Part shown: piece after piece, positions 30,127-46,771 of the stretch
Numbering within the stretch: the first letter of the stretch is position 1
Layout of the letters: the number at the start of each line of letters is the position of its first letter
Virus record (IMG/VR): IMGVR_UViG_3300029953_000013
Direction: 5' to 3' (one strand)
Source of the DNA: a virus
Lineage: Duplodnaviria > Heunggongvirae > Uroviricota > Caudoviricetes
Length of the DNA stretch: 64,000 nt
Made by a program: the position numbers and the translations under genes
The notes under the pieces: model-generated
Told to the model about the DNA's origin: nothing
Seen by the model: only the letters and a program-made list of their open reading frames with translations
Database searches by the model: none

Positions 30127-30132
30127 ATTATT

Positions 30133-32728: not shown

Positions 32729-32818
32729 TGGACCAAAGAACTGGATTTGAACCAGCGGCGCGCCTTTCGACATACGGGGGTTGCAATCCCGCCCCTTCGA
32801 CCACTCGGGCATCTTTGG
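32729..32818 (-). tRNA. 90-nt type II-like tRNA with a Ser/Tyr-like D-arm; anticodon ambiguous (GCA or UGC)
   Basis: acceptor CCAAAGA/TCTTTGG, D-arm CCC-GAGTGGTCGAA-GGG, T-arm GCTGG-TTCAAAT-CCAGT, TCCA end, anticodon loop region TTGCAAC, long variable arm. Confidence 0.45.
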
Positions 32819-32824
32819 AATGAA

Positions 32825-32901
32825 TGGAGCCGGTTCTGAGGATCGAACTCAGGACTTTGCCCTTACAAGGGGCGCCCTCTAGCCAACTGAGGTAAACCGG
32901 C
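32825..32901 (-). tRNA. tRNA-Thr (TGT)
   Basis: cloverleaf folded by hand: acceptor GCCGGTT/AACCGGC, anticodon loop CTTGTAA, T-arm CTGAG-TTCGATC-CTCAG, CCA encoded. Confidence 0.8.
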
Positions 32902-32908
32902 GGGGTGT

Positions 32909-33340
32909 TTAGAAGTCTTTCAGGCGACTCAAGCCGTTGCGCTCAAGAAGCCGCTGGATGGTGCCCCAACCCACGTAGGGGAAGCTTTCCTTGATGCCAT
33001 CGATAGACGCCCGGTGTTCCCGGCGCAGTTTCAGGATGGCTTCCTTGGTTTCCTCAGGGATCTCCCCGAACAAGCGCTTGGGAGGAAAGCCGATGCGGTG
33101 TGCGATGTGTCCCACGGTTTCTAAACCGCAACCAACAACATCGCTGATTTCACGATTGGAGAAACCGTTCACCCACATGTTAGCCACGATGTGGCGGCGG
33201 GACCGGTTGTGAGTATTCCCACTCTTGACCACGATGTGCCGAACCTGCTGGCGGGTGCATCCGGTTGCCAGTGCGATGAACGTAGCGTTACGTCCCAGCT
33301 TGGCGAGTGCGATGATCTGATCTTTCGTTTCCTGTTCCAT
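32909..33340 (-). CDS. putative DNA-binding protein with several HTH-like segments (transposase- or sigma-region-4-like)
   Basis: GRNATFIALATGCTRQQVRHI; GFSNREISDVVGCGLETVGHIAHR; RBS GGAGGTTCCAATG. Confidence 0.45.
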   Translation of the reverse strand: MEQETKDQIIALAKLGRNATFIALATGCTRQQVRHIVVKSGNTHNRSRRHIVANMWVNGFSNREISDVVGCGLETVGHIAHRIGFPPKRLFGEIPEETKEAILKLRREHRASIDGIKESFPYVGWGTIQRLLERNGLSRLKDF

Positions 33341-33355
33341 TGGAACCTCCATAAT

Positions 33356-33368
33356 GTTTGTTACCAAC
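33356..33368 (-). promoter_or_regulatory. GTTGGTAACAAAC promoter-like motif
   Basis: 4-16 nt upstream of the candidate starts. Confidence 0.35.
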
Positions 33369-33448
33369 ACTGAATTGCGCAAGATGACGTTAAAGGCTCG
33401 TTAGGGAACTTCCCGTAGGGACTGCCGCTGTTCTCCCTGCGCATGATA

Positions 33449-33532
33449 TGGTTTCCTGGGTGGGAGTCGAACCCACACGCCTTGCGGCGGCGGATTTTGA
33501 GTCCGCTGCGTCTGCCATTCCGCCACCAGGAA
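33449..33532 (-). tRNA. tRNA-Leu (CAA), type II
   Basis: acceptor TTCCTGG/CCAGGAA, anticodon loop CTCAAAA, variable arm CGCCGCAAGGCGT, T-arm GTGGG-TTCGACT-CCCAC, CCA encoded. Confidence 0.8.
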
Positions 33533-33545
33533 ATACTAGCTAGTC

Positions 33546-33695
33546 TTTCTTGTCATCCTTGGCACGAAGCGTGAAGGTTTCACGATCAATGCTGATGATG
33601 TTCTCAACGGGAACCCCGTCAAGCAGTTCGGTGAATTGGGCATCCGCCGTTTCGTCGGGCACTTCGATGATGATGGTGATTGCTTTCATTACTGC
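33546..33695 (-). CDS. 49-aa acidic peptide
   Basis: RBS CCAAGGAGCAGTAATG. Confidence 0.35.
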
Positions 33696-34102
33696 TCCTT
33701 GGTTGATTGAAGATAGTTGAGGTAATTGCTGTCTCTCAGGAATGCCGCCATTTCGGTGTCTTCACCCTTCATGTGGACAGAAAGCCAATCGAGAACGACT
33801 TGAAGAAGATCCACTGTCAGGTTGTCGCTTGTACGCAGAGCAACGAGGCGCTTCATGATTTCAAAGTGAATAGCCCGGTGCCGTTCATAACCGGGATACT
33901 CGGCTTCACGCATGTATTTCTCTTCGGTTTCAAAGTGCTTCTTGCCGAAGTTGATGAATAGGTCCAGGAGAAGGCTTGAAGCGACCTTGTTTTGTAGCTT
34001 TTCGGCTTCAAGAAGATTGTCCAGATGCCCAAGCCACTCCAAATGCTGGTGATCAATGATGCTTATGTGGGTGAACCATTCGGGTTGCCATGTGATGGTC
34101 AT
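33689..34102 (-). CDS. hemerythrin-like metal-binding protein
   Basis: H..HxxxE ... H...E pattern (HFETEEKYM, YERHRAIHFEIMKRL); RBS GAGGAACAAATG. Confidence 0.5.
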   Translation of the reverse strand: MTITWQPEWFTHISIIDHQHLEWLGHLDNLLEAEKLQNKVASSLLLDLFINFGKKHFETEEKYMREAEYPGYERHRAIHFEIMKRLVALRTSDNLTVDLLQVVLDWLSVHMKGEDTEMAAFLRDSNYLNYLQSTKEQ

Positions 34103-34118
34103 TTGTTCCTCTAAGAGA

Positions 34119-34205
34119 TGGTGTGGGTAACAGGACTCGAACCTGCACGGGCTTTCGCCCACAGCGACCTCAACGCTGCGCGTCTACCAATTCCGCCATA
34201 CCCAC
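34119..34205 (-). tRNA. tRNA-Leu (GAG), type II
   Basis: acceptor GTGGGTA/TACCCAC, anticodon loop TTGAGGT, variable arm TGGGCGAAAGCCCGT, CCA encoded. Confidence 0.8.
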
Positions 34206-34366
34206 TATGGTTTAAAGCAAATCCTTCGGTGCTGCCACGAAATTATCGTGGAAGGTTCGATATAAACACGAAATGCAGGGAACTTCATTGGCGGGCTTTC
34301 TTCCGTGCCAACATGACTCCTTTTTGCTGCACTTAGCTTTTGCTTTATCGTCGCTCACGTTCACTC

Positions 34367-34567
34367 CTATTCCGGCACCAATACGGTAAGCACCTTCGGT
34401 TCACCGATGATTCTCAGCGGCGTATTAGAACCCATTCGCCGGTAAGAGCGAACCTCTTCTACAGCTTCCTCTTTTGCCTTTTTGATCACTTCGCCTAGCG
34501 TGTGATTGTTTCCCCAACGCTCAACGTCAACTTCGACCGTCAATTGGACTCGGGCAACTGCATTCAT
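34367..34567 (-). CDS. small hypothetical protein
   Basis: RBS TAGGAGCATCCATG; the longer ORF would overlap tRNA-Pro. Confidence 0.4.
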   Translation of the reverse strand: MNAVARVQLTVEVDVERWGNNHTLGEVIKKAKEEAVEEVRSYRRMGSNTPLRIIGEPKVLTVLVPE

Positions 34568-34584
34568 GGATGCTCCTAGAAAAT

Positions 34585-34661
34585 TGGTCAGCGTGAGAGG
34601 AATTGAACCTCCGACCCTTCCGCCCCAAACGGGATGCGCTACCAGACTGCGCCACACGCTG
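34585..34661 (-). tRNA. tRNA-Pro (TGG)
   Basis: acceptor CAGCGTG/CACGCTG, anticodon loop TTTGGGG, T-arm GGAGG-TTCAATT-CCTCT, CCA encoded; one C.A mismatch in the anticodon stem. Confidence 0.7.
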
Positions 34662-34669
34662 TTATTTGT

Positions 34670-35107
34670 TCATACCACCAGAGAATGTTTGATTTCGCCC
34701 CGGAGATGCATAAGAAGCATTCCAAGCACGTTGGTCCCTACCCCGTCTACCTTGCCCCAGTAACGATCACCCCAATTGTTACCTTCAACCAGATAGGCAT
34801 TCTCGGTTGCTAAGAGCCATGCACGAAGGTCAAGGTTCTGATTAAACTTCGCCACTAGAACTCGGTACATGATGTCATCCTTGATCTGCTCCCAGTCCTC
34901 CCGCAAGCTCACAGACCTACCCATGCGCTTAGACTCGCTTGCATCAAGGTCCACGAAGAGAACGGCATCGTGAGGGTTCTTACATTTTTGGCTCTGGAAA
35001 GCAGCCTCGGCATTCTTGAATGTGTGCCCAAATACTGTGATGGGGCACGAGAAGAAATTACTCAGGAAGCGGTATTTCCCTGTGAATTCAAGGATTTCTG
35101 TGGTCAT
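34670..35107 (-). CDS. NADAR (YbiA-like) domain protein
   Basis: GKYRFLSNFFSCP...NAEAAFQSQK; RBS GGAGGAAACAATG. Confidence 0.6.
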   Translation of the reverse strand: MTTEILEFTGKYRFLSNFFSCPITVFGHTFKNAEAAFQSQKCKNPHDAVLFVDLDASESKRMGRSVSLREDWEQIKDDIMYRVLVAKFNQNLDLRAWLLATENAYLVEGNNWGDRYWGKVDGVGTNVLGMLLMHLRGEIKHSLVV

Positions 35108-35119
35108 TGTTTCCTCCAA

Positions 35120-35194
35120 TGATAGAGGGGGTGGGTTTTGCAGCCCACATCTACGTTCCATTCGGGAACTGCTCTCCTATTGAGCTACCCCTTC
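35120..35194 (-). tRNA. degenerate tRNA-like element (pseudo-tRNA?)
   Basis: GCTC-AATAGGA-GAGC D-arm and GTTCC/GGAAC stem are present, but the T-loop and acceptor pairing are non-canonical. Confidence 0.2.
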
Positions 35195-35199
35195 TTGTG

Positions 35200-36678
35200 C
35201 TACAGGTTCGACAGCAACCGCTCCCGAATCTCACTCAGCTTCTCTTCCCGAAGCAGCTTGCCATCCTGGAACACCGGCTGAAGGAGATCAGCGGCAATGT
35301 AGTCGGTCGAAGTGAAGCCATCAAAGACCTTCAGTTCCGCGCCGATCTTTAGGACCGCTACCCTGCCCTTCTGACTCTTCTTGACGCCGTTGTCAGTCAC
35401 CGGGTTCTTGTAGATGGCGATCTCTTCCCCGTTGATGGTCACAGCCGTGGACTTCAGGGCGAAGCCGAAGGTATCCCTGGTCGTGTACTGGTAGGTGAAG
35501 GAACCGATGCCGTAGACCATGTTGGTGCTGGCGAAGCCCTTATTCATGAGCCGCACGCTGATCTCACCGCACCGGTCATAGGTGATCGCATCGCCGTAGA
35601 TGCAGCCAATGTGCGAGTCCAGCACCTTGAAGCCCTTCTCGTTCACCGTGCCGCCGAAGATGTCCCACAGAAGCTCGATGACGCCCTTCTTGGCGCGGGG
35701 ATCGGTCGCATCGTCATCACCGCAGATGATCTTGACCGGATCGCCGGAATCGGGGCGGATGACGATCTTGCCATCACGAGCAAGAATCTCAGGCTTGAGG
35801 CTGGGAATGATGACGGAGAGGGTATTCCAAAGATCCCAGGTGTCGGAAACGATGGACAGGAAGCCGGAAGGGTAGACTTCGGTAATCAAGCGCCGGTAGG
35901 TTTCGTACTCGTTCTCAGCACCACCAGCACACATGACGGAATGCTCCGTTGCGGGAATGCTGGTGCCCACCATCTCCCTGGTAACGTCCGCGCCATAGTA
36001 GCGCTCCAGGTAGCAGATGCCGGGAATGGTGTCAGTGCCGAAGAAGGACAGAAGGTGCCCTGCATCGCTCTTGGCGGCGGATTCCAGGCTTGTCATGCCG
36101 CGCATACTGAAGTCGTGTCCCTGGAAAGGAACGAACCCAAGATCCCCACCGGTCAGCTTCGCGTAGGCATTCAGCAGCTTACGGTAGTTCCAGGCAGTCG
36201 TTGCGCTGGTGCTGGGAAGCCACAGTTCGCAGGACATGAGGGTTTCCAGGTAGTTGGTCAGCCAGAAGAACCGGGGATCGGTATTCTCGATGGTGAGCAT
36301 GGGCACACGCACCGGCACGATGGTTCCCTCAGGAACGGCTTTGATCAGGATGGGCAGGAACCCAAGCTCCCAAAGATCGGTGATGTGCGAAGTGTCGGGA
36401 TTCGTCACACCCAGCGTGTGAGTAATCACACGGCTATACTCAGCCAGGACTTCCATCAACGGGCGGCTGAAGAAATTCTCATTGAAGTAATCCATCAAGT
36501 ATTCCTTGATGAAGCCCTGGAAGCCAAATGCAACCACGCTCTGGATGTGCCGGATGCGACTGGTGCGTGGGGTCCAGGTGGAGTAGACAACCTCGGTTCC
36601 GACAGGGTATTGCTGCCGATGAGAACATTTATAAAAATCACACAGGAGTGTGGCTGGATAGGTGGTATGATTGACCAT
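35200..36678 (-). CDS. nadV: nicotinamide phosphoribosyltransferase (NadV/NAMPT family)
   Basis: 492 aa, the typical size of phage NadV; call rests on length, gene context and overall family resemblance, no single diagnostic motif verified; RBS GGAGATATTATG. Confidence 0.7.
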   Translation of the reverse strand: MVNHTTYPATLLCDFYKCSHRQQYPVGTEVVYSTWTPRTSRIRHIQSVVAFGFQGFIKEYLMDYFNENFFSRPLMEVLAEYSRVITHTLGVTNPDTSHITDLWELGFLPILIKAVPEGTIVPVRVPMLTIENTDPRFFWLTNYLETLMSCELWLPSTSATTAWNYRKLLNAYAKLTGGDLGFVPFQGHDFSMRGMTSLESAAKSDAGHLLSFFGTDTIPGICYLERYYGADVTREMVGTSIPATEHSVMCAGGAENEYETYRRLITEVYPSGFLSIVSDTWDLWNTLSVIIPSLKPEILARDGKIVIRPDSGDPVKIICGDDDATDPRAKKGVIELLWDIFGGTVNEKGFKVLDSHIGCIYGDAITYDRCGEISVRLMNKGFASTNMVYGIGSFTYQYTTRDTFGFALKSTAVTINGEEIAIYKNPVTDNGVKKSQKGRVAVLKIGAELKVFDGFTSTDYIAADLLQPVFQDGKLLREEKLSEIRERLLSNL

Positions 36679-36702
36679 AATATCTCCAAGGAGAAGGGTT
36701 GA

Positions 36703-37521
36703 ATGAATATCGGTAAGATTGAATACTTACCATCGGTTCCTGGTGTGTATCTAATCCGAAACACACGTAATGGAAAGGTGTATGTCGGTCAGAGCCAGAT
36801 AGGTTTATACCAACGCTGCTATGGACACTTGGCGAAGCTCCAGGGAGGCGGCGACAATCGCCATCTTCAAGCCGATTGGGACAAGTGCGAAGCTGATTTT
36901 GTCTTTGAAGTCCTTGTGACCTGTGAGCCAGAAGAATGTTCTATGTATGAAACTCACTGCATTGCTCAATATCACTCTTACCACCGGAAGTTTGGCTACA
37001 ACATCGACATAAGAACAAGCGGCGCAGGTAGTAAAAGCCAAGAAACTATCGACAAGATTCAGTCAGATGCTTCAAAGGCTGCGCGTAGTAAGGCAATGAC
37101 AGGTCGTGTGCGTATCACGGATGGAGTGGAAAACCGATCCATTACGCCAGGGCAAGCTGTGCCGGACGGCTGGTGGGAAGGGCTTACCATTCGTAACAAG
37201 CGCAAAACCAATCCAGCAAACAAGGGTTTAACTACGGGTTACGACCCTTTGACGGGTGAAACTATGCAGATCGCTATTGATGATCCTCGTTACCTGAATG
37301 GAGAAATCAAGCACATTGCAAATAAGCGGTGGGAAGGTGTTATAACCAAACGGCAAGAAACAGAGAACAATCGCCTTGGACCTAAAATGGAAACATTGAA
37401 GGGATGCGTTTGGATCAACAACGGTGTAGTCAACAAACGCATCCCTTCCGGTCCAATCCCTAATGGATGGAATGCCGGTAGGCTTCCTAGAAAGCCAAAC
37501 CGAAAAAAGGAAGCCGCCTAA
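36703..37521 (+). CDS. GIY-YIG homing endonuclease (free-standing)
   Basis: GVYLIRNTRNGKVYVGQS...YQRCYGHL; RBS AAGGAGAAGGGTTGAATG; sits between nadV and prs on the opposite strand. Confidence 0.7.
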   Translation: MNIGKIEYLPSVPGVYLIRNTRNGKVYVGQSQIGLYQRCYGHLAKLQGGGDNRHLQADWDKCEADFVFEVLVTCEPEECSMYETHCIAQYHSYHRKFGYNIDIRTSGAGSKSQETIDKIQSDASKAARSKAMTGRVRITDGVENRSITPGQAVPDGWWEGLTIRNKRKTNPANKGLTTGYDPLTGETMQIAIDDPRYLNGEIKHIANKRWEGVITKRQETENNRLGPKMETLKGCVWINNGVVNKRIPSGPIPNGWNAGRLPRKPNRKKEAA

Positions 37522-38405
37522 CCTTCCTGAATAAGAGGAAGGATGTGGACCCGGTTGCTAATTTCGGAAGGTAACTTGTCAACATAAGCCTGGGTAAGAA
37601 TGCTGTTGGTTGTGACAAGGTGATCGATCTTGTTGTATCGGAAGTCTTCCGGCACGCTTGCCCAGTTCGGGTTATCCGGCGTCATGGGAACGCCGAAGAG
37701 CTTGCCATCGAAGATCGACCGCTCACAGTGCGACACGACAAGCACGATTTGCTTGGGATCGAACTTCCTAAGCTCTTCCGAAGCCGCCACGAAAGTTCCA
37801 CCGTAGGAACAAAGATCGTCCACGATCACCACGGTTTTCCCGCGAATGCATTCAGCATTGGAGATGTCGTAACCGGTGATCTTCCCGGTTTCAAAGTCCC
37901 GCTTCTTGAACCCGGCGATCTGAGGGTAGGGCTTGTACATCTCCATGCTTCCGTAGCGCTTCTGTGCCCCGGCATCGGGGAACATGACCACTACCTCTTC
38001 GCCCTCTTCCAGCCCACCAAAGGGCGCTTCGTTGAAGCTGCGGAATGGGTAGTAGGAGCTTGCGTTCTCGCCCAGGTAGGCAAGGGTCAACTCGCTGTGA
38101 GGATCACACACGTAGATGTGCTCAAAGCCCAAGTCCTTGATGAACTCAGCCACGAAACGGAGGGAGCATTGGGAGCCGCCCCTGGAATCCCTGTCCATGC
38201 GCCCGTAGGGCATGTAGAGGATGCGAAGGCTCACATGCTTGTTATGAAGGTGCCGCTTCACCATCATCAGGTGGAAAAGATCCTCATCGCTTTCCCACTT
38301 CAGCACCAACCCATCGGGGTAGAACGGAACGTGGCTCATGTTCAATTCCCCGTTGGGGAACATCGTGCGCGGGATGGGATTGCCGGTTGCATCATAGAGC
38401 ATCAT
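37518..38405 (-). CDS. prs: ribose-phosphate pyrophosphokinase (PRPP synthetase)
   Basis: PYGRMDRD (RQDR-like) and VVIVDDLCSYGGTF PRPP-binding loop. Confidence 0.65.
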   Translation of the reverse strand: MMLYDATGNPIPRTMFPNGELNMSHVPFYPDGLVLKWESDEDLFHLMMVKRHLHNKHVSLRILYMPYGRMDRDSRGGSQCSLRFVAEFIKDLGFEHIYVCDPHSELTLAYLGENASSYYPFRSFNEAPFGGLEEGEEVVVMFPDAGAQKRYGSMEMYKPYPQIAGFKKRDFETGKITGYDISNAECIRGKTVVIVDDLCSYGGTFVAASEELRKFDPKQIVLVVSHCERSIFDGKLFGVPMTPDNPNWASVPEDFRYNKIDHLVTTNSILTQAYVDKLPSEISNRVHILPLIQEG

Positions 38406-38425
38406 TGACTCCTTGTTGTTTAATA

Positions 38426-38438
38426 GGTTGTTACCACC
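38426..38438 (-). promoter_or_regulatory. GGTGGTAACAACC promoter-like motif
   Basis: about 23 nt upstream of the prs ATG. Confidence 0.4.
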
Positions 38439-38440
38439 AG

Positions 38441-38710
38441 CTAGACGATGACGGTCTGCCCACGAACCCCGTCAATAATGGCTGTCACCGATGAAGTGCG
38501 AATGGGTGCATCCGGGAAGTCCGCGAAGAAGATCCAGCACCGCTCATCAACCTTCGGTCCAATGATGTCAGTGTAGGGAATCCACACACCATCCTTGGTG
38601 AAGGGAAAGAGCGGGAAATTGGCACCGCTGATCCGACGAACAAGCTTGGCTTCCGGGTCCACTTCAAAGATGCTGTTGCGGGTTGAAAACTGTTTCGTGG
38701 GCTGTGTCAT
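38441..38710 (-). CDS. hypothetical protein
   Basis: 89 aa. Confidence 0.45.
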   Translation of the reverse strand: MTQPTKQFSTRNSIFEVDPEAKLVRRISGANFPLFPFTKDGVWIPYTDIIGPKVDERCWIFFADFPDAPIRTSSVTAIIDGVRGQTVIV

Positions 38711-38913
38711 TTAGAAATCCCCCAGGTGCCGCGCAGAGCGGTCAGGTTGCTATCCCAAAAGTGCAGCATCAGACGGGACAGCCCACCATGGGAAATGTCC
38801 ATGAGCGAAGCCAGTTCGGCATGGGAGAAACCGGCACGGATACCGTACTCCAGTTCTGCCCTGCGCCCGAAGTGCTGGGAAAGCGTGTTCTTCTGTTTGT
38901 AGATTTTAGCCAT
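38707..38913 (-). CDS. hypothetical protein (possible HTH)
   Basis: 68 aa. Confidence 0.4.
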   Translation of the reverse strand: MAKIYKQKNTLSQHFGRRAELEYGIRAGFSHAELASLMDISHGGLSRLMLHFWDSNLTALRGTWGISK

Positions 38914-38915
38914 GG

Positions 38916-39329: not shown

Positions 39330-39344
39330 GGTTGCTCCAAAGAA

Positions 39345-39419
39345 TGGCTGGGGAGGTAGGATTCGGACCCACGAATGACGGGATCAAAACCCGTTGCCTT
39401 ACCACTTGGCTACTCCCCA
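39345..39419 (-). tRNA. tRNA-Gln (TTG)
   Basis: U1-A72 acceptor TGGGGAG/CTCCCCA, anticodon loop TTTTGAT, T-arm GTGGG-TCCGAAT-CCTAC, CCA encoded. Confidence 0.75.
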
Positions 39420-39796
39420 CTGTATGGATCGATCTTGATCTCAAGATCGGGTAGCTCTTGTATATCTATACCAACCAAGGCTTTTGTAATTACTTCTTCA
39501 AGCATCTTCCCTCGCGCCTTTGCATAAAGATCCTGATGCATGTTGACCAAGGCGTTGAATACGTGCTTGTTTGAATAGTCTGGCTTGTCGTATATGTGCT
39601 TTGGATACGACGAATTGAAATCGTGAATGACCGTGACTAAATGGTAATTCCTGGTTTCAAAATCAAGTTCCAGGTGCCTTCGGTCGTATCCTTTGATCTT
39701 TGTTTCATACTTCAGGGTGCCGGTGTTGTATAAAAGATAATCCAGGATCTTGTCAATTTGTCCGGTCAGAAGCAGCACTTCCACATCATTAGCCAT
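39410..39796 (-). CDS. hypothetical protein; last 3 codons overlap the tRNA-Gln 5' end
   Basis: 128 aa ORF ending DPYSGE-TAG inside the tRNA acceptor stem. Confidence 0.4.
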   Translation of the reverse strand: MANDVEVLLLTGQIDKILDYLLYNTGTLKYETKIKGYDRRHLELDFETRNYHLVTVIHDFNSSYPKHIYDKPDYSNKHVFNALVNMHQDLYAKARGKMLEEVITKALVGIDIQELPDLEIKIDPYSGE

Positions 39797-39807
39797 TGGC
39801 TACCTCA

Positions 39808-39841
39808 ATAAAAAAGCCGGGGCACCACCACGGACCCCGGC
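39808..39841 (-). terminator. rho-independent terminator
   Basis: GCCGGGGtccgtggtggtgCCCCGGC followed by TTTTTTATT on the minus strand. Confidence 0.55.
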
Positions 39842-39858
39842 TCCCCCAACATCACGCG

Positions 39859-40059
39859 CTAAGAACACAGCGCAGCAATGCACCCCACCACTACAAAGAA
39901 GACCGCGAAACAAGCCCATGCCGCGAAGCCGAACCAGAGAGGGCACGTAACCCACCACCAGGACCAAGCAATAACATTGGTCAACTTGAGGACCAGAAAA
40001 ATCAGGAAGAGAATCGTCATGACACTCATACCGCCGTTTGCTCCTTGTTGATGGTTCAT
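39859..40059 (-). CDS. small membrane protein
   Basis: RBS GGAGGGTGGTATG; two TM helices. Confidence 0.45.
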   Translation of the reverse strand: MNHQQGANGGMSVMTILFLIFLVLKLTNVIAWSWWWVTCPLWFGFAAWACFAVFFVVVGCIAALCS

Positions 40060-40079
40060 ACCACCCTCCATGCATGATA

Positions 40080-40680
40080 GAACCCGCCCTGCCGTGCGCT
40101 TTGCTACGCTGGTGGCACCCAATCTAAAGGTTGAGGCGGGAGCCTTAAACCCTGTTCTGCGCTGACATGCCTTTGCTTAATTCCGGTGGCACCAGACCCA
40201 CACGCTTTTGCAGGGATATTTGCTTCAGCATTCCACTGAAGCTGCCGGGTTTGTCAACTGCGCTCCGTTGATCGAGCTATTAAGGGGATTGCCCCACCCT
40301 TGCGGGAATTTAGGTAGCCACCGGACGATACACCACAAGTCTTAACCAGACCGGGATACGGGCTTGTGGTGCCAGATGCAGGCTTTGAACGGGTCGCTCC
40401 GTACGTTGTCAAGCCGATTGACTCTCAGCGCTGGCTACTACGGCTTGACCAAGCGCCTCTGTTTATCTGCATAACCAAAGATAAAGCAACCTACCAAAGT
40501 AAGTAAGGCACAGAATGTTTACAATCTCCCGCCCCGAAAGGTGGATGTTGAACCGTGCGGTCCCTGGTTCTGAGGGCGTTTCTGTGACCATCACAGGTTG
40601 GACATGCTGATGCACCACAACCTCTTTGGTAGTCTTGTGCGTGATGATTCTTCGCTTGCTTTGATTGCGCGGCATGTGCG
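40080..40680. other. ~600-nt structured non-coding spacer (candidate ncRNA)
   Basis: no ORF; multiple long-range complementary segments (CCGGTGGC/GCCACCGG, CCACAAG/CTTGTGG); lies between a terminator and the next gene. Confidence 0.25.
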
Positions 40681-40688
40681 CCCCCTCG

Positions 40689-40949
40689 TTAATGAACGGT
40701 AACGATTGATTCCTCAGTTGAAACCTGGACTCCTGGCGGAAGAGTTACCAATGTTTCGCTGAAGTAGTTCCAGAACTGGGTAGTGCCATCTGGCATGATC
40801 CAAGGCTTTGTGCAGCAGCCCCAGGAGTCAATCGAATGCATCTGCCCGTTAGAAGTCGTAAACGCTGTAATTATGCAGCGAGATTCTTTCCTTCCGGGAC
40901 TGCACCCCAACGTCAGGGCAAGGATGATGGCGAGTAGAACTTGTTTCAT
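40689..40949 (-). CDS. small lipoprotein
   Basis: LAIILALTLGCSPG lipobox; GAGG RBS. Confidence 0.5.
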   Translation of the reverse strand: MKQVLLAIILALTLGCSPGRKESRCIITAFTTSNGQMHSIDSWGCCTKPWIMPDGTTQFWNYFSETLVTLPPGVQVSTEESIVTVH

Positions 40950-41180
40950 TGAAACCTCGAAAAATGATCGGCGGGGCGTGATGGCTTTTCACCACCGACA
41001 TACAGGATTCCCGTCAGAATTACCTGATGCTCCTATTTTCGCTTTGCTTGAGCCGTTTTAGCGCTACCGACTCTCCCTCTACGTTTTTCTGAGCTAACGC
41101 CCCATGGATTTGGTAAACCCACAGTCTCCAGGTCAGGTAATCACTCCTTCTGGCAATACTGTGGGGTATTTGGTGGAGCT

Positions 41181-41256
41181 AACAGGGATCGAACCTGCGA
41201 CCTAGTGCTTGCAAAGCACCCGCTCTCCCATCTGAGCTATAGCCCCTGATATTGCC
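41181..41256 (-). tRNA. tRNA-Ala (TGC)
   Basis: acceptor GGGGCTA/TAGCTCC, anticodon loop TTTGCAA, T-arm GCAGG-TTCGATC-CCTGT, CCA encoded. Confidence 0.8.
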
Positions 41257-41372
41257 GCTTAGTCGAATCGCGGTTCACCCCTAATGGACCGGTATCTGTT
41301 TGCTCCTTGCGGAGTTTCTGTGCCGTGGGGTTTGCAGGTCCGGTTATCCTGCCCTCTTCTACTTCATACCAC

Positions 41373-41642
41373 CTAGATTTCCGGGATCGGAAACTCAAAG
41401 AACTCCAGGCAGTCAACGAAGAAGCCGTAGAAGTCGTTCACGAGAGAATGGGGAATGTCCTTCCCGAATTCCTTCTCATCGAACAGCCGAACCATTGCCA
41501 GCTTCAGCCCTTCCCTTTCGCTGAAGGTGTCTTCAGACGAGCACAGGGACCAACCCAGCCTCAGTGCCCCGTCCTCGTGCCTGAATGCCACCAGGACGCC
41601 CTTGCGCTTGCCGTTGCGACCGTTCACATACCGCTTGATCAT
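41373..41642 (-). CDS. hypothetical protein
   Basis: 89 aa. Confidence 0.4.
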   Translation of the reverse strand: MIKRYVNGRNGKRKGVLVAFRHEDGALRLGWSLCSSEDTFSEREGLKLAMVRLFDEKEFGKDIPHSLVNDFYGFFVDCLEFFEFPIPEI

Positions 41643-41814
41643 GACTTCTCCTATGGAAATTTTCTGCTGTGATTATTCACATGATAGGTGTCTACACTCC
41701 GTTGGATTCCCAACGTCCTCCGACCGCAGTAGAGAGGAACTTCCAGCTTCTCAGGCTGGCGTGCGTTAAACCCCGGCAAGGGTTGGGTCATGACTACGGG
41801 ATTGCCGCCCCGAT

Positions 41815-41905
41815 TGGCGATGGGTGAGGGGATCGAACCCCCGGAACCTTTCGGTTCACTTGTTTTCAGGACAAGCGCAATCGACCGCTCTGCCAACCCA
41901 CCATC
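41815..41905 (-). tRNA. tRNA-Ser (TGA)-like, 91 nt, type II with an irregular acceptor/D junction
   Basis: anticodon arm CTTGT-CCTGAAA-ACAAG, variable hairpin GAACCgaaaGGTTC, T-arm GGGGG-TTCGATC-CCCTC, GCCA end; the 5' acceptor has two mismatches and extra nt. Confidence 0.5.
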
Positions 41906-42507
41906 TACTCTTTTACTGTATTACCACCCCCGCGCCAGTCTCCGAATAACCCTAGCTCTCTGGCTTCCCTCATTCCTTTGGCTACAACTAACCACGCTAA
42001 GTAAGGCATGTTCTTTCTTGTCAGATTGCATCTGATACACGCTGGAACAACATTGCTAGTTATATGAGGAAGGCTATTATCCACTCGATCAAGCGTTAGT
42101 TTGCCTGAAGTTTCCCCACAGTAACAACACCCCTTACCAAGTAACTCCATGATCCAGTCAGTGGTTAAATCATTGGTCCAACCGCGCTTTGCATCCCCAC
42201 CATTGGAATCTTGTTTGATAACCAGGGCAATATCATAGGGGTTTTTGGAACTTCGCAGTTGCTTGGCGTATTCTGACCCTTTAACTCTTCGGGCTTGTAG
42301 CTTCTTCGGATCGGTTTCTTTCCTTCTTGGGTAAGTTGCCTTCCTGATAGAATCACAAATGACACAGGTTTTACGGAAAAAGACTAAACCCTTTGACTTT
42401 CTATACGATGGTATCACTTCTGGGAACGCCTTAGCACATGTGTCACACACAAAGCCTTCCTTCGTTCTTTTTGTGGACATGCGCATATACCAACTCAGCG
42501 TGTCCAT
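41905..42507 (-). CDS. HNH homing endonuclease (HNH_3-like)
   Basis: LDRVDNSLPHITSNVVPACIRCNLTRKN plus N-terminal zinc-ribbon cysteines. Confidence 0.55.
   Translation of the reverse strand: MDTLSWYMRMSTKRTKEGFVCDTCAKAFPEVIPSYRKSKGLVFFRKTCVICDSIRKATYPRRKETDPKKLQARRVKGSEYAKQLRSSKNPYDIALVIKQDSNGGDAKRGWTNDLTTDWIMELLGKGCCYCGETSGKLTLDRVDNSLPHITSNVVPACIRCNLTRKNMPYLAWLVVAKGMREARELGLFGDWRGGGNTVKE
41930..41938 (-). promoter_or_regulatory. GGTGGTAAT promoter-like motif about 25 nt upstream of the tRNA-Ser-like 5' end
   Basis: the motif sits before an RNA gene, which argues for a transcriptional role. Confidence 0.4.
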
Positions 42508-42978
42508 AGAACATTGTTAGCCCCCCTATAGGGTTGGTATGATATTGCCCTGCGTTCCGCGAGAACCAGGGCTGGTGTCAGCTTTAACCTAATGACACGT
42601 TGAACTATCCCGACAATGCTACAGTTACGATGTGGGACGGTAAGGGAGGGTCTTATGTGCTGTATCACACAGGCTTCCTCTAGCCTTCGCTGCCGCGATT
42701 TGGAGCAGGGAAGTGTGGTGTTTGATGCCCTAGTCCGCAACAAACCTTCATCCACACCTTAATCCCTGCATGATAGTTCTACGTTTGTGCATACACGCCA
42801 CGTAGAAAGGTGTCGGGTGCGGTCTAAGCGCATTCAGACCTGTATCCAGAGCAGCGCTACCCCAGGTCATGTACCCTACTTCACGCTTTAATTGGACCAT
42901 CATGGGGCACGCTACATCGGCTATCCCTGTGGAGCTTGGACGCTCAATCCACACCGTCACGTTTAATGATGATCCTTA

Positions 42979-43047
42979 GGCGCATCTTGCCGGATTTGAA
43001 CCGACCATGACTATTGCGCGACAGCCATGACAACCAACATAAGATGC
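42979..43047 (-). tRNA. short degenerate tRNA-like element
   Basis: acceptor GCATCTT/AAGATGC and T-arm GTCGG-TTCAAAT-CCGGC are good, but the D and anticodon region is too short and non-canonical. Confidence 0.2.
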
Positions 43048-43212
43048 ATTCATGCGTTGATTCTGATGATGGACGCATCCCCATCAAGAGGTTTCTTTGT
43101 CTATGGAGCAACCTACTCAACAACCGCCAGCTTTTAACAATTAAGAGGGCGCTGGTCCCTACCCTTTTCTCGGTTTTTGCAAGGTTCCGAAAAAGGATGA
43201 ACAACTAACCTT

Positions 43213-43292
43213 TGGCGAGTCTGGCTGGATTTGAACCAGCGGCATCTTCCTTAACAGGGAAGCGCTCTAGGACCGGACTGAGCTACAGACCC
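43213..43292 (-). tRNA. tRNA-Asn (GTT)
   Basis: acceptor GGGTCTG/CAGACTC, anticodon loop CTGTTAA, T-arm GCTGG-TTCAAAT-CCAGC, CCA encoded; 12-nt D-loop. Confidence 0.7.
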
Positions 43293-43297
43293 AAGGG

Positions 43298-43379
43298 AGA
43301 CAGGGGACGGATTTGAACCGCCGTATTACCGGATGCGCTATCCGGTGGCTTTGAATTGACCAGACTTAGCTACCCTGCC
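43298..43379 (-). tRNA. atypical tRNA-like element (expanded D region; anticodon arm CCGGA-TAGCGCA-TCCGG)
   Basis: acceptor GGCAGGG/CCCTGTC and T-arm GGCGG-TTCAAAT-CCGTC; position 33 is not U. Confidence 0.25.
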
Positions 43380-43551
43380 GTGGTGATGGCTTGAGGAACC
43401 ATCGTGAGATTGATTTTGACTGTTGTTTTCAGGAACAGCCCCAGGTTGTCGCCCAGGTTGACCAATACATCCAGCACTTATTTCAGTTCGGTATGCTACA
43501 CGAACCCAGGTTTCACACGCTGTGCGCAGAACGCTTGGAAACGTCTTGATT

Positions 43552-43870
43552 TGGTGGATCTGGCGAGAGTCGAACTCGCGTCCAAGAAGGTGAACCCACA
43601 AGAGTTTTATCAGCATCTTAGCCTCTGAATCGGGAGGCACCGCATGTCAAGGTGCTTGGTTTTCCTAGTTTACTCGCCAGCTAGGAGGCGCATCATTTAG
43701 GCAGCTACAGCAAAAGCTCCTGCGCGGCGGTAACGACGGAAAGCAACAACATTGGACTTCTTGTTGGTGTTGGCAGTTTTGTTTTAGTTGATTTGATGAC
43801 CCAGCCCTTCAACTACCTGGGGATGCCTCTTTGCGAATCAGCACGAACCTGTCGAAACCTTTACAGACCC
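43552..43870 (-). ncRNA. ssrA: tmRNA (ssrA)
   Basis: 5' GGGTCTGTAAAGGTTTCGAC... pairs with the 3' ...GGACGCGAGTTCGACTCTCGCCAGATCCACCA (close to the E. coli tmRNA 3' end); internal tag ORF ends ...GCT GTA GCT GCC TAA (AVAA-stop); candidate resume codon GCC after an in-frame UAA. Confidence 0.7.
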
Positions 43871-44200
43871 ATGATAGGTAGGGTAGTTTAACGTCTTGCC
43901 CCAGGACGTAGGGGTGCCGGTTAAAGCGCCCTCCACCACTCCACAATTATCAGCATGGAGACTGTTTCTTGCGCCCTCTCTTTGATTCCTACCACCGATG
44001 GTTGCTAGTCTCAGCTACTAGCGCGTCACCATTCCTAATGAAGCCGGTGATTCTTGCCCTCCCGTAACTTTAATGGCGCGGGACGTAACCGCCCTTTCGG
44101 GCTACCATGCTCTTTGGCTCTCAGTGCCCTTTAACGGAATTGAACCGCCTCTCGTCTTTACCAAAACTCAGCAACCGAACAGGAATTGAACCTGTATTTT

Positions 44201-44276
44201 TGGTAGGGGAAACCGGGATCGAACCGATGACCTTCACCGTGTAAAGGTGTTGCTCTACCAACTGAGCTATTCCCCT
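44201..44276 (-). tRNA. tRNA-Val (TAC)
   Basis: acceptor AGGGGAA/TTCCCCT, anticodon loop TTTACAC, T-arm ATCGG-TTCGATC-CCGGT, CCA encoded. Confidence 0.75.
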
Positions 44277-44759
44277 GATGACAGGAAGTGTCTGCTCCGA
44301 TTCGCCCCATGAGTGCTTGCTTGATAAGCAGAACCCGCACTCCAGCTTTTTGCGTAGACCGGCATCTTCCTGGCGTTGCAATCGTTCAGTTGCGCGTGTA
44401 CGCTCTCGGGACTGTTCGCTCCGACCCCGTTGCTGTCGTGTGACAGCTTCACGCCGGGGAATTCACCCTGAGTTTCAATCCAAGTCTTCGGGTTCCATCC
44501 TTGGAAGGGTGCGATTGAATGGGAAGACCCATAACCGCTGACAGGCTAGGGACGGACTTGATCCCCGAATACCCTTTGTTACCGTTTACCGTATCCGGGA
44601 CGGTGCTGGACGGGCTGCTTCCAGCTTTAGAGTCCATACCGGGGGAGGCTTTCGCCCACGAGTCCGGTATCCCCTGTCTTGGGCGGGTAAGCTTCCCAAC
44701 TTACCTCGCATCGAGGTTTTACCCTGGATAGGTGCTTTTTACCACCTTCGCGCCCGGTC
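44277..44759. other. ~480-nt structured non-coding spacer (candidate ncRNA)
   Basis: no credible ORF; GC-rich with many complementary segments; a GGTGGTAAAAAG motif at its 5' end on the minus strand. Confidence 0.2.
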
Positions 44760-45074
44760 TTAGTCTTTGGGGATTGCAAGCCGCTGAAGACCTTCCTGTG
44801 ACATCCAGGACGGTAGGTAGGTTTCTACCACCAGCGCTTCACACTCATCAAAGAGATCACTGTAAATCTTCTTCAGGAACCTTGCCAGCCGATCATCCTT
44901 CCAGCTTGGCGTAGCGTGCCCACCACTACTCAGGTTGATCCACCACTTGTTTTCCACCAAGCTATAACAAAGCTGCCCATTCGCTACCAACAGATGCAGA
45001 TTCGGTTTGCCTATGAAGTTCATGAGCTTGGGAATCTCAAGCAGATAAAGCAAAGCAGCTTCGTATTGCATCAT
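44760..45074 (-). CDS. hypothetical protein
   Basis: 104 aa; weak RBS. Confidence 0.35.
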   Translation of the reverse strand: MMQYEAALLYLLEIPKLMNFIGKPNLHLLVANGQLCYSLVENKWWINLSSGGHATPSWKDDRLARFLKKIYSDLFDECEALVVETYLPSWMSQEGLQRLAIPKD

Positions 45075-45258
45075 TGGCTCAAAGAAAAACCAATGTGGTT
45101 AGATTGAAATAGGATGATCAAGCCCCGTCCTCGCCATCACCCAGGGGTCACAAATTATGAGCATAGACCCCGCCCCGCCGATCACTTGTGAAACGTCACA
45201 CTAAGCCAGAGGACCATGTAGTCCCAACACGCCTTGTAGTAACCTAAGCTGAATTCCA

Positions 45259-45507
45259 TCACATCTCACGAGGATGGTAGATAGTGACGCGACCCTGCTT
45301 GATCAGACCAGTCCCAATATGAGTCGGGATGTCGATCTTGAAGCCCTGCTGATGATTGAGGCTCAAGGCACGCCGCACGTATTTCATTGCGTAGGTGTCT
45401 GCCTCATCCGCATTCGGGGCGGCGATATAGAGATCAACATTGACTTTTACCTTGAAGCGCTTGCATTCGTGATGCACTGCTACTTCCGTGGTTGTTGATG
45501 GAATCAT
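45259..45507 (-). CDS. hypothetical protein
   Basis: 82 aa; AAAGGG RBS. Confidence 0.4.
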   Translation of the reverse strand: MIPSTTTEVAVHHECKRFKVKVNVDLYIAAPNADEADTYAMKYVRRALSLNHQQGFKIDIPTHIGTGLIKQGRVTIYHPREM

Positions 45508-45687
45508 TTGAAACCCTTTCTAAACGGCTACCGACAAAATGGAAGGTATGATAGTGGACTTCCCGCACGTATTTTAGGGAAATGTGCTTGCTGCATTCTA
45601 CGACAGAGCCATCACTAGGAGGTTGTAGCAGCATCGCACGATTCTTGCACTCTGGCGCTTCCCTTATGCCAGTCCATCAGAGCACCA

Positions 45688-45717
45688 AAGCGGGAGGGGT
45701 TCGGAAGCCGCTTTTTA
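45688..45717. terminator. bidirectional terminator-like hairpin
   Basis: AAGCGGgaggggttcggaagCCGCTTTTT. Confidence 0.4.
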
Positions 45718-45723
45718 AGTTAT

Positions 45724-46224
45724 TCATGATTCAGTGGGGATGTTTTGCAAATCCCATTCTGCATGAACTTCACGATGACAGTTAGCACAAAGGAGATCAC
45801 ATTTTTCTAACTCTATTGCGATCTTGAACCAAGCTCTACCGAAGGCAGAGGAAATCGCAAATTCTTTTTCACTCGGAATTCGATGGTGAAACTCCAACGC
45901 CGATATGCACTTCTTGTAGCCGCATATCATACATTTACCACCCTTGTGCTGAATGCACTTTGCTTTGAGCCGGAACCTTTTTGTAGTAAGGCTGCAATTA
46001 GCACAGTATTTGCGAAGTCTTTCAAACGGCGACATTACCTTTCCGCAACGTTCGCAATTAGTCCATTCATGTTTCCGATAATCTTGTTTTGAAAAGTTCA
46101 CCGTGTTATGTGTGCCAAACGGAGTGCAAGCTAAACAGTATTTTCGCTTTTGTAGATTCCGCTTTTTACCGCCGATTACGACTGAACCGCTGAACTCTTT
46201 ACCACACTTTCCACAGGTTTTCAT
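45724..46224 (-). CDS. HNH homing endonuclease with N-terminal zinc ribbons
   Basis: CANCHREVH plus multiple CxxC. Confidence 0.6.
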   Translation of the reverse strand: MKTCGKCGKEFSGSVVIGGKKRNLQKRKYCLACTPFGTHNTVNFSKQDYRKHEWTNCERCGKVMSPFERLRKYCANCSLTTKRFRLKAKCIQHKGGKCMICGYKKCISALEFHHRIPSEKEFAISSAFGRAWFKIAIELEKCDLLCANCHREVHAEWDLQNIPTES

Positions 46225-46263
46225 TACCGCACTGGAAGCATTACCACAAGGCAGTAATTTATT

Positions 46264-46367
46264 AGGCAGGGGTAGGACTCGAACCTACGACCCTTTACGG
46301 CATAATTGGTGCGTAGCACGGAATCAGCCTACTGCAAGTAATGCTCTACCAACTGAGCTACCCTGCC
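46264..46367 (-). tRNA. atypical 104-nt tRNA-like gene (possible insertion or intron in the anticodon region)
   Basis: canonical acceptor GGCAGGG/CCCTGCC, D-arm GCTC-AGTTGGTA-GAGC and T-arm GTAGG-TTCGAGT-CCTAC, but 53 nt between the D and T arms; no CCA. Confidence 0.35.
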
Positions 46368-46384
46368 TTTCCCTTTTCAAGGAA

Positions 46385-46654
46385 CTACTTGCACACCAGA
46401 GCGGCGAGGTTTGCCGCAACCTGCACTGCCTTTTCGGCGTGCGCCAGGGAAGCGTCCTTGGCTTTGATCTTGGTGGCGATCTCTTCTTCATGCGCCTTGA
46501 TCTTGGCAGCGATTTCTTCTTCGCTGGTCTGAATCTTCGCCTTCTCCTTGGCGGCAATAGCCTCCAGCCGGTCGATGGCGTCATGGAACTCGATGAGGAT
46601 GTTCTTTACCGAATCCCGGTAGAACAATTTCTTGAAAAGCTTGACCAGAAACAT
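46385..46654 (-). CDS. small coiled-coil protein
   Basis: RBS TGGAGGCAACATG; Lys/Glu/Ala-rich heptads. Confidence 0.45.
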   Translation of the reverse strand: MFLVKLFKKLFYRDSVKNILIEFHDAIDRLEAIAAKEKAKIQTSEEEIAAKIKAHEEEIATKIKAKDASLAHAEKAVQVAANLAALVCK

Positions 46655-46695
46655 GTTGCCTCCATTGTGGGTTGTTTGTTGCGATTGAAAAAGGT

Positions 46696-46771
46696 TGGTT
46701 ACGGAAACTGGATTTGAACCAATATTCGCTGCGTCAGAGGCAGGTGTCCTACCGGGTTGGACGATTCCGCA
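46696..46771 (-). tRNA. tRNA-Gln (CTG)
   Basis: U1-A72 acceptor TGCGGAA/TTCCGTA, anticodon loop CTCTGAC, T-arm ATTGG-TTCAAAT-CCAGT, CCA encoded; one C.C mismatch at the top of the anticodon stem. Confidence 0.65.

Follow-up and report, generated by a model that had tools for sequence, protein, structure and literature searches.

A phage island of tRNA and tmRNA genes with a class II tRNA-Cys and a 104-nt tRNA-like gene

Clusters of tRNA genes occur in large lytic phages (T4-, T5- and rV5-like), in which many tRNAs on one strand are packed together with small open reading frames (ORFs) and with free-standing genes for HNH and GIY-YIG homing endonucleases. A cultured example, phage GAP31, carries some 20 tRNAs, among them a pseudo-tRNA and an 89-nucleotide (nt) class II-shaped tRNA-Asn. 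Transfer-messenger RNAs (tmRNAs) are also known in huge phages (PMC7162821) and are present in 2.3% of sequenced phage genomes (PMC9004378). The island studied here shares the one-strand packing of such clusters. It lies at 32729-46771 on the minus strand of a 64-kb stretch of Caudoviricetes DNA (64,000 nt; IMG/VR record IMGVR_UViG_3300029953_000013), which as a whole is called the window below. It differs from the known clusters in also having a tmRNA and 1.7 kb of non-coding DNA, and in showing no DNA similarity to 50,697 deposited phage genomes (megablast, blastn) beyond generic tRNA matches. The island is probably a translation-support cluster of a large uncultured peat/bog phage, consisting of 11 canonical tRNAs and a tmRNA, with a class II tRNA-Cys, tRNA relics and non-coding spacers without demonstrated structure; we hold this reading with reasonable confidence.

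tRNA and tmRNA genes of the island

Genes for tRNA and tmRNA were called with ARAGORN (default, relaxed and intron modes) and with the covariance models of Rfam 15, both at the curated thresholds and permissively at E<=1; the gathering threshold of the Rfam tRNA model, RF00005, is 29 bits. In the 64-kb window ARAGORN found 11 tRNAs and one tmRNA, all on the minus strand and all within 32729-46771. Rfam at its curated thresholds agreed with this set and added a 104-nt tRNA match at 46264-46367. RF00005 had 13 matches at or above gathering (45.6-67 bits), 32732-32818, 41818-41902 and 46264-46367 among them, and the permissive scan added 43298-43379 at 36.5 bits and nothing further of note. Plus-strand calls of relaxed ARAGORN with "introns" of 81-1454 nt were set aside as artefacts. 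The genes are as follows (called by ARAGORN in its default mode unless stated, with the Rfam score).

32729-32818, minus strand: tRNA-Cys(GCA), 90 nt, class II build; 45.7 bits
32825-32901, minus strand: tRNA-Thr(UGU), CCA encoded; 57.5 bits
33449-33532, minus strand: tRNA-Leu(CAA); 54.9 bits
34119-34205, minus strand: tRNA-Leu(GAG); 53.9 bits
34585-34661, minus strand: tRNA-Pro(UGG); 51.5 bits
39345-39419, minus strand: tRNA-Gln(UUG); 62.1 bits
41171-41246, minus strand: tRNA-Ala(UGC); 65.9 bits
41815-41902, minus strand: tRNA-Ser(UGA), canonical class II, 88 nt, G2.U71 wobble; 45.6 bits
43213-43292, minus strand: tRNA-Asn(GUU); 67 bits
43552-43870, minus strand: one-piece tmRNA, full length; RF00023, 84.5 bits, E 2e-31
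44201-44276, minus strand: tRNA-Val(UAC); 66.2 bits
46264-46367, minus strand: 104-nt tRNA-like gene, ARAGORN intron mode; 51.8 bits
46696-46771, minus strand: tRNA-Gln(CUG); 51.2 bits

The nine tRNAs named in a first-pass annotation of this DNA were all recovered by ARAGORN at the same places, with the same anticodons and on the same strand (Rfam 45.6-67 bits). A further gene that it had described as 91 nt long, Ser(TGA)-like and mismatched in the acceptor is a normal 88-nt tRNA-Ser(UGA), the supposed mismatch being the G2.U71 wobble and the start of the gene having been placed 3 nt too early. Each of the 11 canonical tRNAs has a 5-bp anticodon stem, a 7-nt loop, U33 and a readable anticodon. 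The 3' CCA, which had been noted for most of them, is encoded in all 11 and in the tmRNA, but in none of the four aberrant elements (starting at 46264, 43298, 42979 and 35123). Over the whole window there are 11 copies of the T-loop motif GGTTCNANTCC, every one of them on the minus strand.

Among the tRNAs and the tmRNA lie small ORFs, genes for NAD salvage and four genes for homing endonucleases. Between 32700 and 39420 the tRNAs have an ORF stop codon directly upstream and a Shine-Dalgarno sequence with an ATG 10-20 nt downstream; the Pro, Leu-GAG, Cys and Gln-UUG genes and the pseudo-tRNA at 35123 are examples of the downstream pattern. This layout suggests polycistronic transcripts with tRNAs as punctuation. 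The region would be read as long transcripts, from which host RNase P and RNase Z would excise the RNAs, a scheme in keeping with the way in which stop codons and ribosome-binding sites of ORFs adjoin the tRNAs. The phage tRNAs would then top up or replace those of the host, and the tmRNA would rescue stalled ribosomes during infection.

The tmRNA had been overlooked in the first-pass annotation. It spans positions 1-374 of the RF00023 model, for which the gathering threshold is 47 bits. As read from the sequence, its acceptor is GGGUCUG/CAGAUCC with G3.U70, followed by A73 and CCA; a G3.U70 pair specifies alanine charging. The tag given by ARAGORN, ANTNKKSNVVAFRRYRRAGAFAVAA, is followed by a stop codon; it is 25 residues long, basic, and ends in AVAA. 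Like the known phage tmRNA (ssrA), the gene is complete: it has both a reading frame for the tag and a domain resembling tRNA-Ala. It differs in the long basic tag, in the absence of SmpB from the window, in having no riboswitch or other Rfam element attached, and in being flanked by tRNA fragments and tRNA-like relics. It lies between the element at 43298-43379 and the spacer at 43871-44200. SmpB was sought in the 64-kb window by tblastn with an E. coli query, and no gene was found (best E 0.027, not credible). A permuted two-piece tmRNA at 43606-44214, proposed by relaxed ARAGORN, was rejected: it borrows the 3' end of tRNA-Val, and the one-piece gene matches Rfam end to end. A tmRNA-anchored pattern had no match in JGI metagenome contigs, the phage itself included; other parts of the phage come from JGI samples (L083, L085, L086, L376).

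The class II tRNA-Cys

tRNA-Cys has been described as a class I tRNA (PMC4810241), and no description of a class II tRNA-Cys was found in the literature searched. The 90-nt gene at 32729-32818 had been taken for an aberrant type II scaffold carrying a GCA anticodon. The long-arm scaffold and the GCA are real; the gene itself is not aberrant, being called tRNA-Cys by ARAGORN, scoring well above the Rfam threshold and belonging to a covarying family. It has acceptor and T stems of 7 and 5 bp, a 3-bp D stem, an 18-nt variable region, U73 and an encoded CCA, with a C1-G72 pair and an A31.C39 mismatch. Its D arm, CCCGAGUGGUCGAAGGG, has a D loop of the Tyr/Ser type, and with a variable region longer than 10 nt the tRNA belongs to class II. 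The major determinants of cysteinyl-tRNA synthetase (CysRS) are the GCA anticodon and U73 (PMC9976931). Both are present, and on this basis CysRS would charge the tRNA with Cys.

Viral contigs were scanned with a pattern in which the D loop, the T loop and the UGCAA of the anticodon loop were the sole fixed parts. This gave 42 loci, 81-91 nt long, all of which ARAGORN called tRNA-Cys. Among 25 distinct viral sequences, the window's own counted in, pairing was found at 174 of 175 acceptor, 118 of 125 anticodon-stem and 124 of 125 T-stem pairs, with 3-6 pair types at each acceptor position. U73, a position left free by the search pattern, was present in 24 of the 25, and the variable region was 11-20 nt long across the viral family. 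The same pattern was run on bacterial contigs with one genome per species. Among the matches listed nearly all were from Phycisphaerae (Planctomycetota), at least about 80 genomes having a class II tRNA-Cys(GCA), together with a few genomes of Actinomycetota, Gemmatimonadota and Armatimonadota. The Phycisphaerae version is highly conserved, 81-89 nt long, with U73 and the sequence GGCCGYGUGCCCGAGUGGAC... (e.g., L133 6209-6270 and L148 2725-2792). In the version of Tepidisphaeraceae (L148) the 5' strand of the T stem is identical to that of the window tRNA-Cys, a weak hint as to the host.

Since stem pairing is kept with varied pair types and U73 is nearly invariant (24/25), the class II tRNA-Cys is to be read as an established, selected architecture which recurs in phages and in Phycisphaerae, and not as an aberration. 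One family member matches an Acinetobacter phage tRNA-Tyr at 81%. Because the class II tRNA-Cys is most similar to phage tRNA-Tyr genes, it probably arose from tRNA-Tyr by a GUA-to-GCA change (position 35) and a change of A73 to U73.

Nematode nev-tRNAs resemble the window gene in being class II scaffolds that bear an anticodon for a class I amino acid (PMC3333845). Such tRNAs keep leucine identity and mistranslate. In the window-type tRNA-Cys, however, the discriminator has shifted to the cognate U73 in all but one of the 25 members, which points to correct Cys charging, unlike in nev-tRNAs. The selC* tRNA-Cys and allo-tRNAs (PMC5389517) likewise have a long variable arm and an anticodon other than Ser, Leu or Tyr, and selC* also has U73 and GCA; their stems are 8/4 or 9/3 and their D arm is tRNA-Sec-like, whereas the window gene has 7/5 stems and a tRNA-Tyr/Ser-like D arm. 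An assignment to allo-tRNAs or selC* tRNA-Cys was ruled out by this 7/5 geometry, since 8/4 or 9/3 is required (PMC5389517).

Class II-shaped tRNAs bearing class I anticodons, annotated as Asn or Lys, were also seen in cultured phages. The one in Cronobacter phage GAP31 (L129 1492-1580) is an 89-nt tRNA-Asn(GUU) with G73, and genes annotated as tRNA-Lys in Rhodobacter and Ruegeria phages (H74, H76) match a class II query at 75-76%.

Short tRNA-like elements, neighbouring genes and spacers

Three short elements and two fragments resemble tRNAs in part.

35123-35195, minus strand: degenerate tRNA-like element, Phe GAA-like; relaxed ARAGORN only; fold z-score -2.18
42979-43047, minus strand: putative tRNA-like relic; relaxed ARAGORN only; tRNA-Sec model 16.8 bits, E 1.5
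43298-43379, minus strand: aberrant tRNA-like gene; Rfam tRNA 36.5 bits; fold z-score -3.02
44179-44195 and 44133-44149, minus strand: two tRNA 3'-half fragments (T arm and 3' acceptor strand), read from the sequence and the strand bias of GGTTCNANTCC

All three short elements had been listed as pseudo-tRNAs before; the Rfam tRNA model recognizes 43298-43379, whereas the other two were found only by relaxed ARAGORN. Neither of these two reached the RF00005 threshold, and for 35123-35195 Rfam gave no match at E<=1. In 43298-43379 the 5' strand of the acceptor, GGCAGGG, is that of 46264-46367, the D loop is enlarged, and U73 is followed by CCC in place of CCA. Its anticodon stem has 7 bp and a 5-nt AGCGC loop, with A where U33 belongs if the stem is opened; the arm GGA-UAGCGCA-UCC resembles GGA-AUGCUAA-UCC of L308b, one of the phage tRNAs with an extra arm treated in the last section. 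The acceptor and T arm of 42979-43047 are good, the D arm is missing, and a long stem ends in a CGCGCA loop (6 or 8 nt); the 3' end of the element is G-CCU, not CCA, and this end and the trailer are 83% like those of tRNA-Asn (repeat D11). The element at 35123-35195 has an A.C mismatch in the acceptor, an 8-nt non-consensus T loop, C33 and no CCA, and it occupies exactly the interval from the stop codon of NAMPT to the ribosome-binding site of NADAR. A decoding-competent anticodon arm (5-bp stem, 7-nt loop, U33) is absent from all four aberrant elements, 46264-46367 included, and no suppressor anticodon was found among them, contrary to one of the options offered earlier. In 43298-43379 and in 42979-43047 alike, the loop at the end of a long stem includes the palindromic sequence GCGC, which may be coincidental or may reflect a common feature, for instance a recognition site or a contact between loops. 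The two T-arm fragments directly follow tRNA-Val and lie upstream of the tmRNA. They had been noticed in the first-pass annotation, and since GGTTCNANTCC has a strand bias of 11:0 they are taken as tRNA-derived and not as chance matches.

For the three short elements and the T-arm fragments the reading as decaying tRNA copies, one of those first proposed, fits best, because CCA is lacking (CCC or CCU stands there instead), the anticodon loops are non-canonical and the scores are weak. Partial duplication followed by decay is the simplest account since four homing endonuclease genes are nearby, all within 17 kb. These elements and 46264-46367 would then be what is left of tRNA genes that endonuclease-driven recombination broke or duplicated in part. 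The neighbouring genes were identified with Pfam and PHROGs.

26354-26932, minus strand: P-loop kinase-like protein (Pfam)
26957-27592, minus strand: metallophosphoesterase (Pfam)
28375-29508, minus strand: T4 Rnl1-type RNA ligase (Pfam)
29536-30201, minus strand: HNH_4 endonuclease (Pfam)
34670-35107, minus strand: NADAR (Pfam/PHROGs)
35200-36678, minus strand: NAMPT (Pfam/PHROGs)
36703-37521, plus strand: GIY-YIG homing endonuclease (Pfam/PHROGs)
37518-38405, minus strand: ribose-phosphate pyrophosphokinase (Pfam/PHROGs)
41905-42507, minus strand: HNH, endonuclease VII-like homing endonuclease (PHROG 1035, 2118)
45724-46224, minus strand: HNH homing endonuclease, about 40 nt downstream of the 104-nt gene (PHROG 2255, E 2e-39)

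A ribonucleotide reductase gene follows downstream of the island (PHROGs/Pfam). The window is phage DNA, since the NAMPT, ribose-phosphate pyrophosphokinase, ribonucleotide reductase, HNH and GIY-YIG genes have matches in PHROGs and Pfam. The NAD salvage genes (NAMPT, ribose-phosphate pyrophosphokinase and NADAR) lie inside the tRNA island and are split by the GIY-YIG gene on the opposite strand; such genes can counter NAD-depleting host defences. By analogy with T4 Pnk/Rnl1, the row of RNA ligase, metallophosphoesterase and kinase-like genes is a possible tRNA-repair set.

An exact-protein look-up found contigs at least 99.94% identical (9 single-nucleotide polymorphisms in all) in peat/bog metagenomes, the longest being 99,931 bp. 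Diverged relatives of the phage were not found by DNA, NAMPT, small-ORF, protein or tmRNA-anchored searches. The best non-identical NAMPT among 5.8 billion proteins had 71% identity, on a 305-kb contig that is not syntenic; 80 NAMPT-anchored IMG/VR loci shared no spacer DNA with the island and had no tmRNA; and the small island ORFs at 44760-45074 and 39410-39796 had no relatives in IMG/VR. A 684-aa protein was discarded as a search anchor, being mosaic and apparently tail-fibre-like.

The aberrant elements could instead be functional RNAs without a decoding role, serving as decoys or sponges for tRNA-targeting nucleases or tRNA-modifying toxins, or as "punctuation" that recruits RNase P and RNase Z and frees mRNAs and spacer RNAs. 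We regard this as unlikely. All the elements keep good acceptor and T arms, the parts recognized by RNase P, RNase Z and many tRNA-binding proteins, and both the exact fit of 35123-35195 between NAMPT and NADAR and the place of the T-arm fragments, between tRNA-Val and the tmRNA, would suit such a role. The Rnl1-type RNA ligase, phosphoesterase and kinase-like genes nearby suggest anticodon-nuclease pressure, for which, together with tRNA repair, T4 Pnk/Rnl1 and PrrC are the established precedent. Phage tRNAs that evade tRNA-targeting defences are documented (PMC10264068). However, these elements have no conserved relatives, and the loss of CCA and the CCC and CCU ends resemble neutral decay. 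A decoy for an anticodon nuclease should moreover keep a target-like anticodon loop, whereas the loops here have 5, 6 or 8 nt or are missing.

Four spacers make up about 1.7 kb of non-coding DNA in the island.

40076-40462, no strand assigned: non-coding stretch of about 390 nt (remainder of 40080-40680); no gene called; z-score -1.60; no Rfam match
42508-42978, no strand assigned: non-coding spacer; no gene called; z-score -1.72; no Rfam, PHROG or nhmmer match
43871-44200, minus strand: spacer holding the two tRNA 3'-half fragments; z-score +0.44
44277-44759, no strand assigned: non-coding spacer; no gene called; z-score -1.69 (-1.6 to -1.7); no Rfam, PHROG or nhmmer match

The first of these had been delimited as 40080-40680. 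About 390 nt of that stretch is indeed non-coding, and the rest holds a probable small gene at 40463-40675. This spacer is preceded by a membrane-protein ORF (39810-40059) with a strong hairpin and T-run terminator after it, and the small gene is followed by an 86-aa lipoprotein-like ORF (40689-40949; signal LALTLGC). ORFs in the spacers were rejected as genes because their codon scores are close to zero and PHROGs gave no match at E<=0.05, and gene callers found nothing in the 2.3-kb block 42451-44759.

Extensive self-complementarity had been claimed for the spacers, and their fold z-scores do not bear this out: all four lie within the range of ten coding controls (-2.07 to +2.38), and the plus strands are similar. 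This test is insensitive, as the genuine tmRNA scores only +0.48. No known RNA family was recognized in the spacers: a search with all Rfam 15 families at E<=1 gave only chance-level matches to unrelated families (E 0.4-0.7). Spacer-like DNA was absent from the 50,697 phage genomes (megablast, blastn); the spacers and the tmRNA had no nhmmer match in 3.9 Mb of fetched loci; and there were no repeats within the spacers and no paralogy among them. Structure in the spacers is therefore unsupported by fold scores and searches, though not disproved. Dedicated tools thus gave standard identities to the Ser and Cys genes and no support to spacer structure, but standard identities did not emerge for all elements.

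GOLLD, ROOL and HEARO are large structured RNAs, each an Rfam family, which occur next to tRNAs in phages. The spacers are like them in being several hundred nt of non-coding DNA beside phage tRNA genes, and differ in matching no Rfam family at E<=1. It is a distinctly unlikely alternative that the four spacers are new structured non-coding RNAs freed from a tRNA/tmRNA precursor and comparable to GOLLD and ROOL. What speaks for it is the 1.7 kb without called gene or protein-family match, three z-scores near -1.7, several GNRA-type hairpins visible in the sequence, and the highly expressed large intergenic regions reported for megaphages (PMC6784885). These are outweighed by the failed Rfam, phage-genome and fetched-locus searches, by z-scores inside the coding-control range with the plus strand alike and one spacer at +0.44, and by the lack of internal repeats or paralogy.

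A bolder proposal combines both ideas: the block 42451-44759 and the 104-nt gene would form a tRNA-punctuated operon of non-coding RNAs, in which host tRNA-processing enzymes free spacer RNAs and anticodon-less mimics (46264-46367 and the GCGC-loop elements 43298 and 42979) that bind or distract tRNA-directed defence or modification enzymes; the class II build of the tRNA-Cys would serve as a deliberate structural disguise, so that Cys codons could still be read under an attack on the class I tRNA-Cys of the host. We consider this highly doubtful.

The 104-nt gene, extra-arm tRNAs and the meaning of the island

"Enigmatic introns" have been reported in tRNAs of Lak megaphages (Devoto 2019, PMC6784885), and irregular E-loop tRNAs in transcripts from peat and forest soil (Mukai 2017). 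Both resemble the extra-arm tRNAs described below in having an additional structured insertion.

The gene at 46264-46367 has canonical acceptor, D and T arms. As the first-pass annotation had noted, an unusual stretch of 53 nt (53-54 nt by our count) separates the D and T arms, and the Rfam alignment places 39 nt where 9 are expected. A UUAC/GUAA stem enclosing UU, a hairpin and ACCAAUUAUGCC replaces the anticodon arm; there is U73, no CCA and no separate anticodon hairpin. Two collection scans for other copies gave only the identical copy from the same phage and no diverged one.

A scan of viral contigs required the D arm of this gene and, after it, an excessively long stretch before the T loop. 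This returned at least 120 viral loci, among which three groups stood out. The first consists of giant-virus tRNA-Tyr genes with eukaryote-type introns. The second consists of phage tRNA-like genes in which a conserved insert, CUCAUGGUGAAGGRCCAAA (CYUCAYGGYNAAGGRCCAAA), replaces the anticodon arm (L289, L314, L338, L364, L261, L306, L329, L334, L342, L347, L358, L301, L291 and L343). The third, also from phages, comprises extra-arm tRNAs of several isotypes, 114-127 nt long and often in tandem arrays (L254 6304-6877; L308 3833-4185; L270 3717-4287), with a stem that encloses a hairpin and (A)ACAGCAA; such tRNAs were also found in contigs of human-gut metagenomes (L373, L378, L381, L386). Some of them have the insert between the D arm and the anticodon stem, others apparently in the anticodon loop. 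In several with the first arrangement a short hairpin comes after the insert, its 7-nt loop being canonical (AUUACAA, AUGCUAA, CUUAUAA or CUGUUAA). Five arms are present in the minimum-energy folds of L317 and L254c, and the fold of L308b retains the anticodon hairpin. An RNAalifold consensus of the family was abandoned, as the middle region failed to align, and a reading of the inserts as mini-tmRNAs was dropped for want of a consistent stop codon. The ACAGCAA motif in spacer 44277-44759 was also discounted, occurring at chance rate.

Common to 46264-46367, L333 and L308b are the D arm, an acceptor of the form G[GC]CAGGG/CCCUG[GC]C and the sequence GCUAC(A)GCA(A)CCAA. L333 is longer than the 104-nt gene by 11 nt, as many as its anticodon hairpin contains. 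In the 104-nt gene the stem and the hairpin are present together with a related strand, ACGCACCAA; the exact ACAGCAA motif and the anticodon hairpin are absent. We read it as a degenerate relative of the extra-arm tRNAs, from one of which it would derive by loss of the anticodon hairpin. Compared by description only, an E-loop tRNA of Mukai with U73 and a GCU anticodon matches L308b, a close relative of the 104-nt gene. The 104-nt gene differs from E-loop tRNAs in having no separate anticodon hairpin, ACGCACCAA instead of ACAGCAA, and no CCA.

The first-pass annotation had also thought of an intron. The resemblance to phage tRNAs with a structured insertion stands, but the anticodon hairpin of those relatives is lost here. 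ARAGORN in intron mode gives Ile(UAU) with a 30-nt intron at 32/33. The usual site of a bulge-helix-bulge intron is 37/38, and that motif was not evident on reading the sequence of 46264-46367, no dedicated search having been made. A group I intron would need at least 200 nt, the insert has only 30-39 nt, and no Rfam intron family matched at E<=1. We hold it very unlikely that this is a functional tRNA, of the Ile(UAU) or some other isotype, from which an intron of about 30 nt would be removed after transcription, a case that would resemble the Lak megaphage introns: the ARAGORN call, the Rfam score of the tRNA body (51.8 bits), the phage tRNA introns already mentioned (PMC6784885), the many phage loci with tandem 114-127-nt tRNAs carrying a conserved inserted module and the RNA ligase gene nearby speak for it, whereas, besides the site and size of the insert, the spliced loop UUUAUGC would have G37 and a U31.C39 mismatch, CCA is missing unlike in every canonical tRNA of the island, the relatives L333, L308b, L317 and L254c still have, besides the inserted arm, a distinct anticodon hairpin of the canonical 7-nt kind, which this gene lacks, and no second, diverged copy was found.

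Several points weigh against the translation-support reading of the island as a whole. The long variable arm of the tRNA-Cys could also permit charging by seryl-tRNA synthetase (SerRS), and, as there is no SmpB in the window, the tmRNA would depend on the host protein. A 2.3-kb block without a called gene is unusual for a phage, and three of the four spacers have z-scores near -1.7, low though inside the control range. The element at 43298-43379 still passes the Rfam tRNA threshold and folds well (z-score -3.0), and the GCGC-containing loops of 43298 and 42979 could be functional. As no diverged relative of the phage was found, the lack of conserved copies of the aberrant elements and spacers is not in itself evidence of decay.

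The island is a familiar kind of phage feature, a new example and not a new principle, in which two tRNA designs are of interest: the class II tRNA-Cys and the putative degenerate relative of the extra-arm tRNA family. The phage tRNA arrays with an extra arm (hairpin and ACAGCAA) have barely been described, and they are carried by many phages. Dozens of phage contigs have the long-arm tRNA-Cys with U73 and GCA, which in Phycisphaerae seems to be the conserved form of tRNA-Cys; it bears on how CysRS, SerRS and tyrosyl-tRNA synthetase discriminate among class II tRNAs, and on how tRNA genes change identity.

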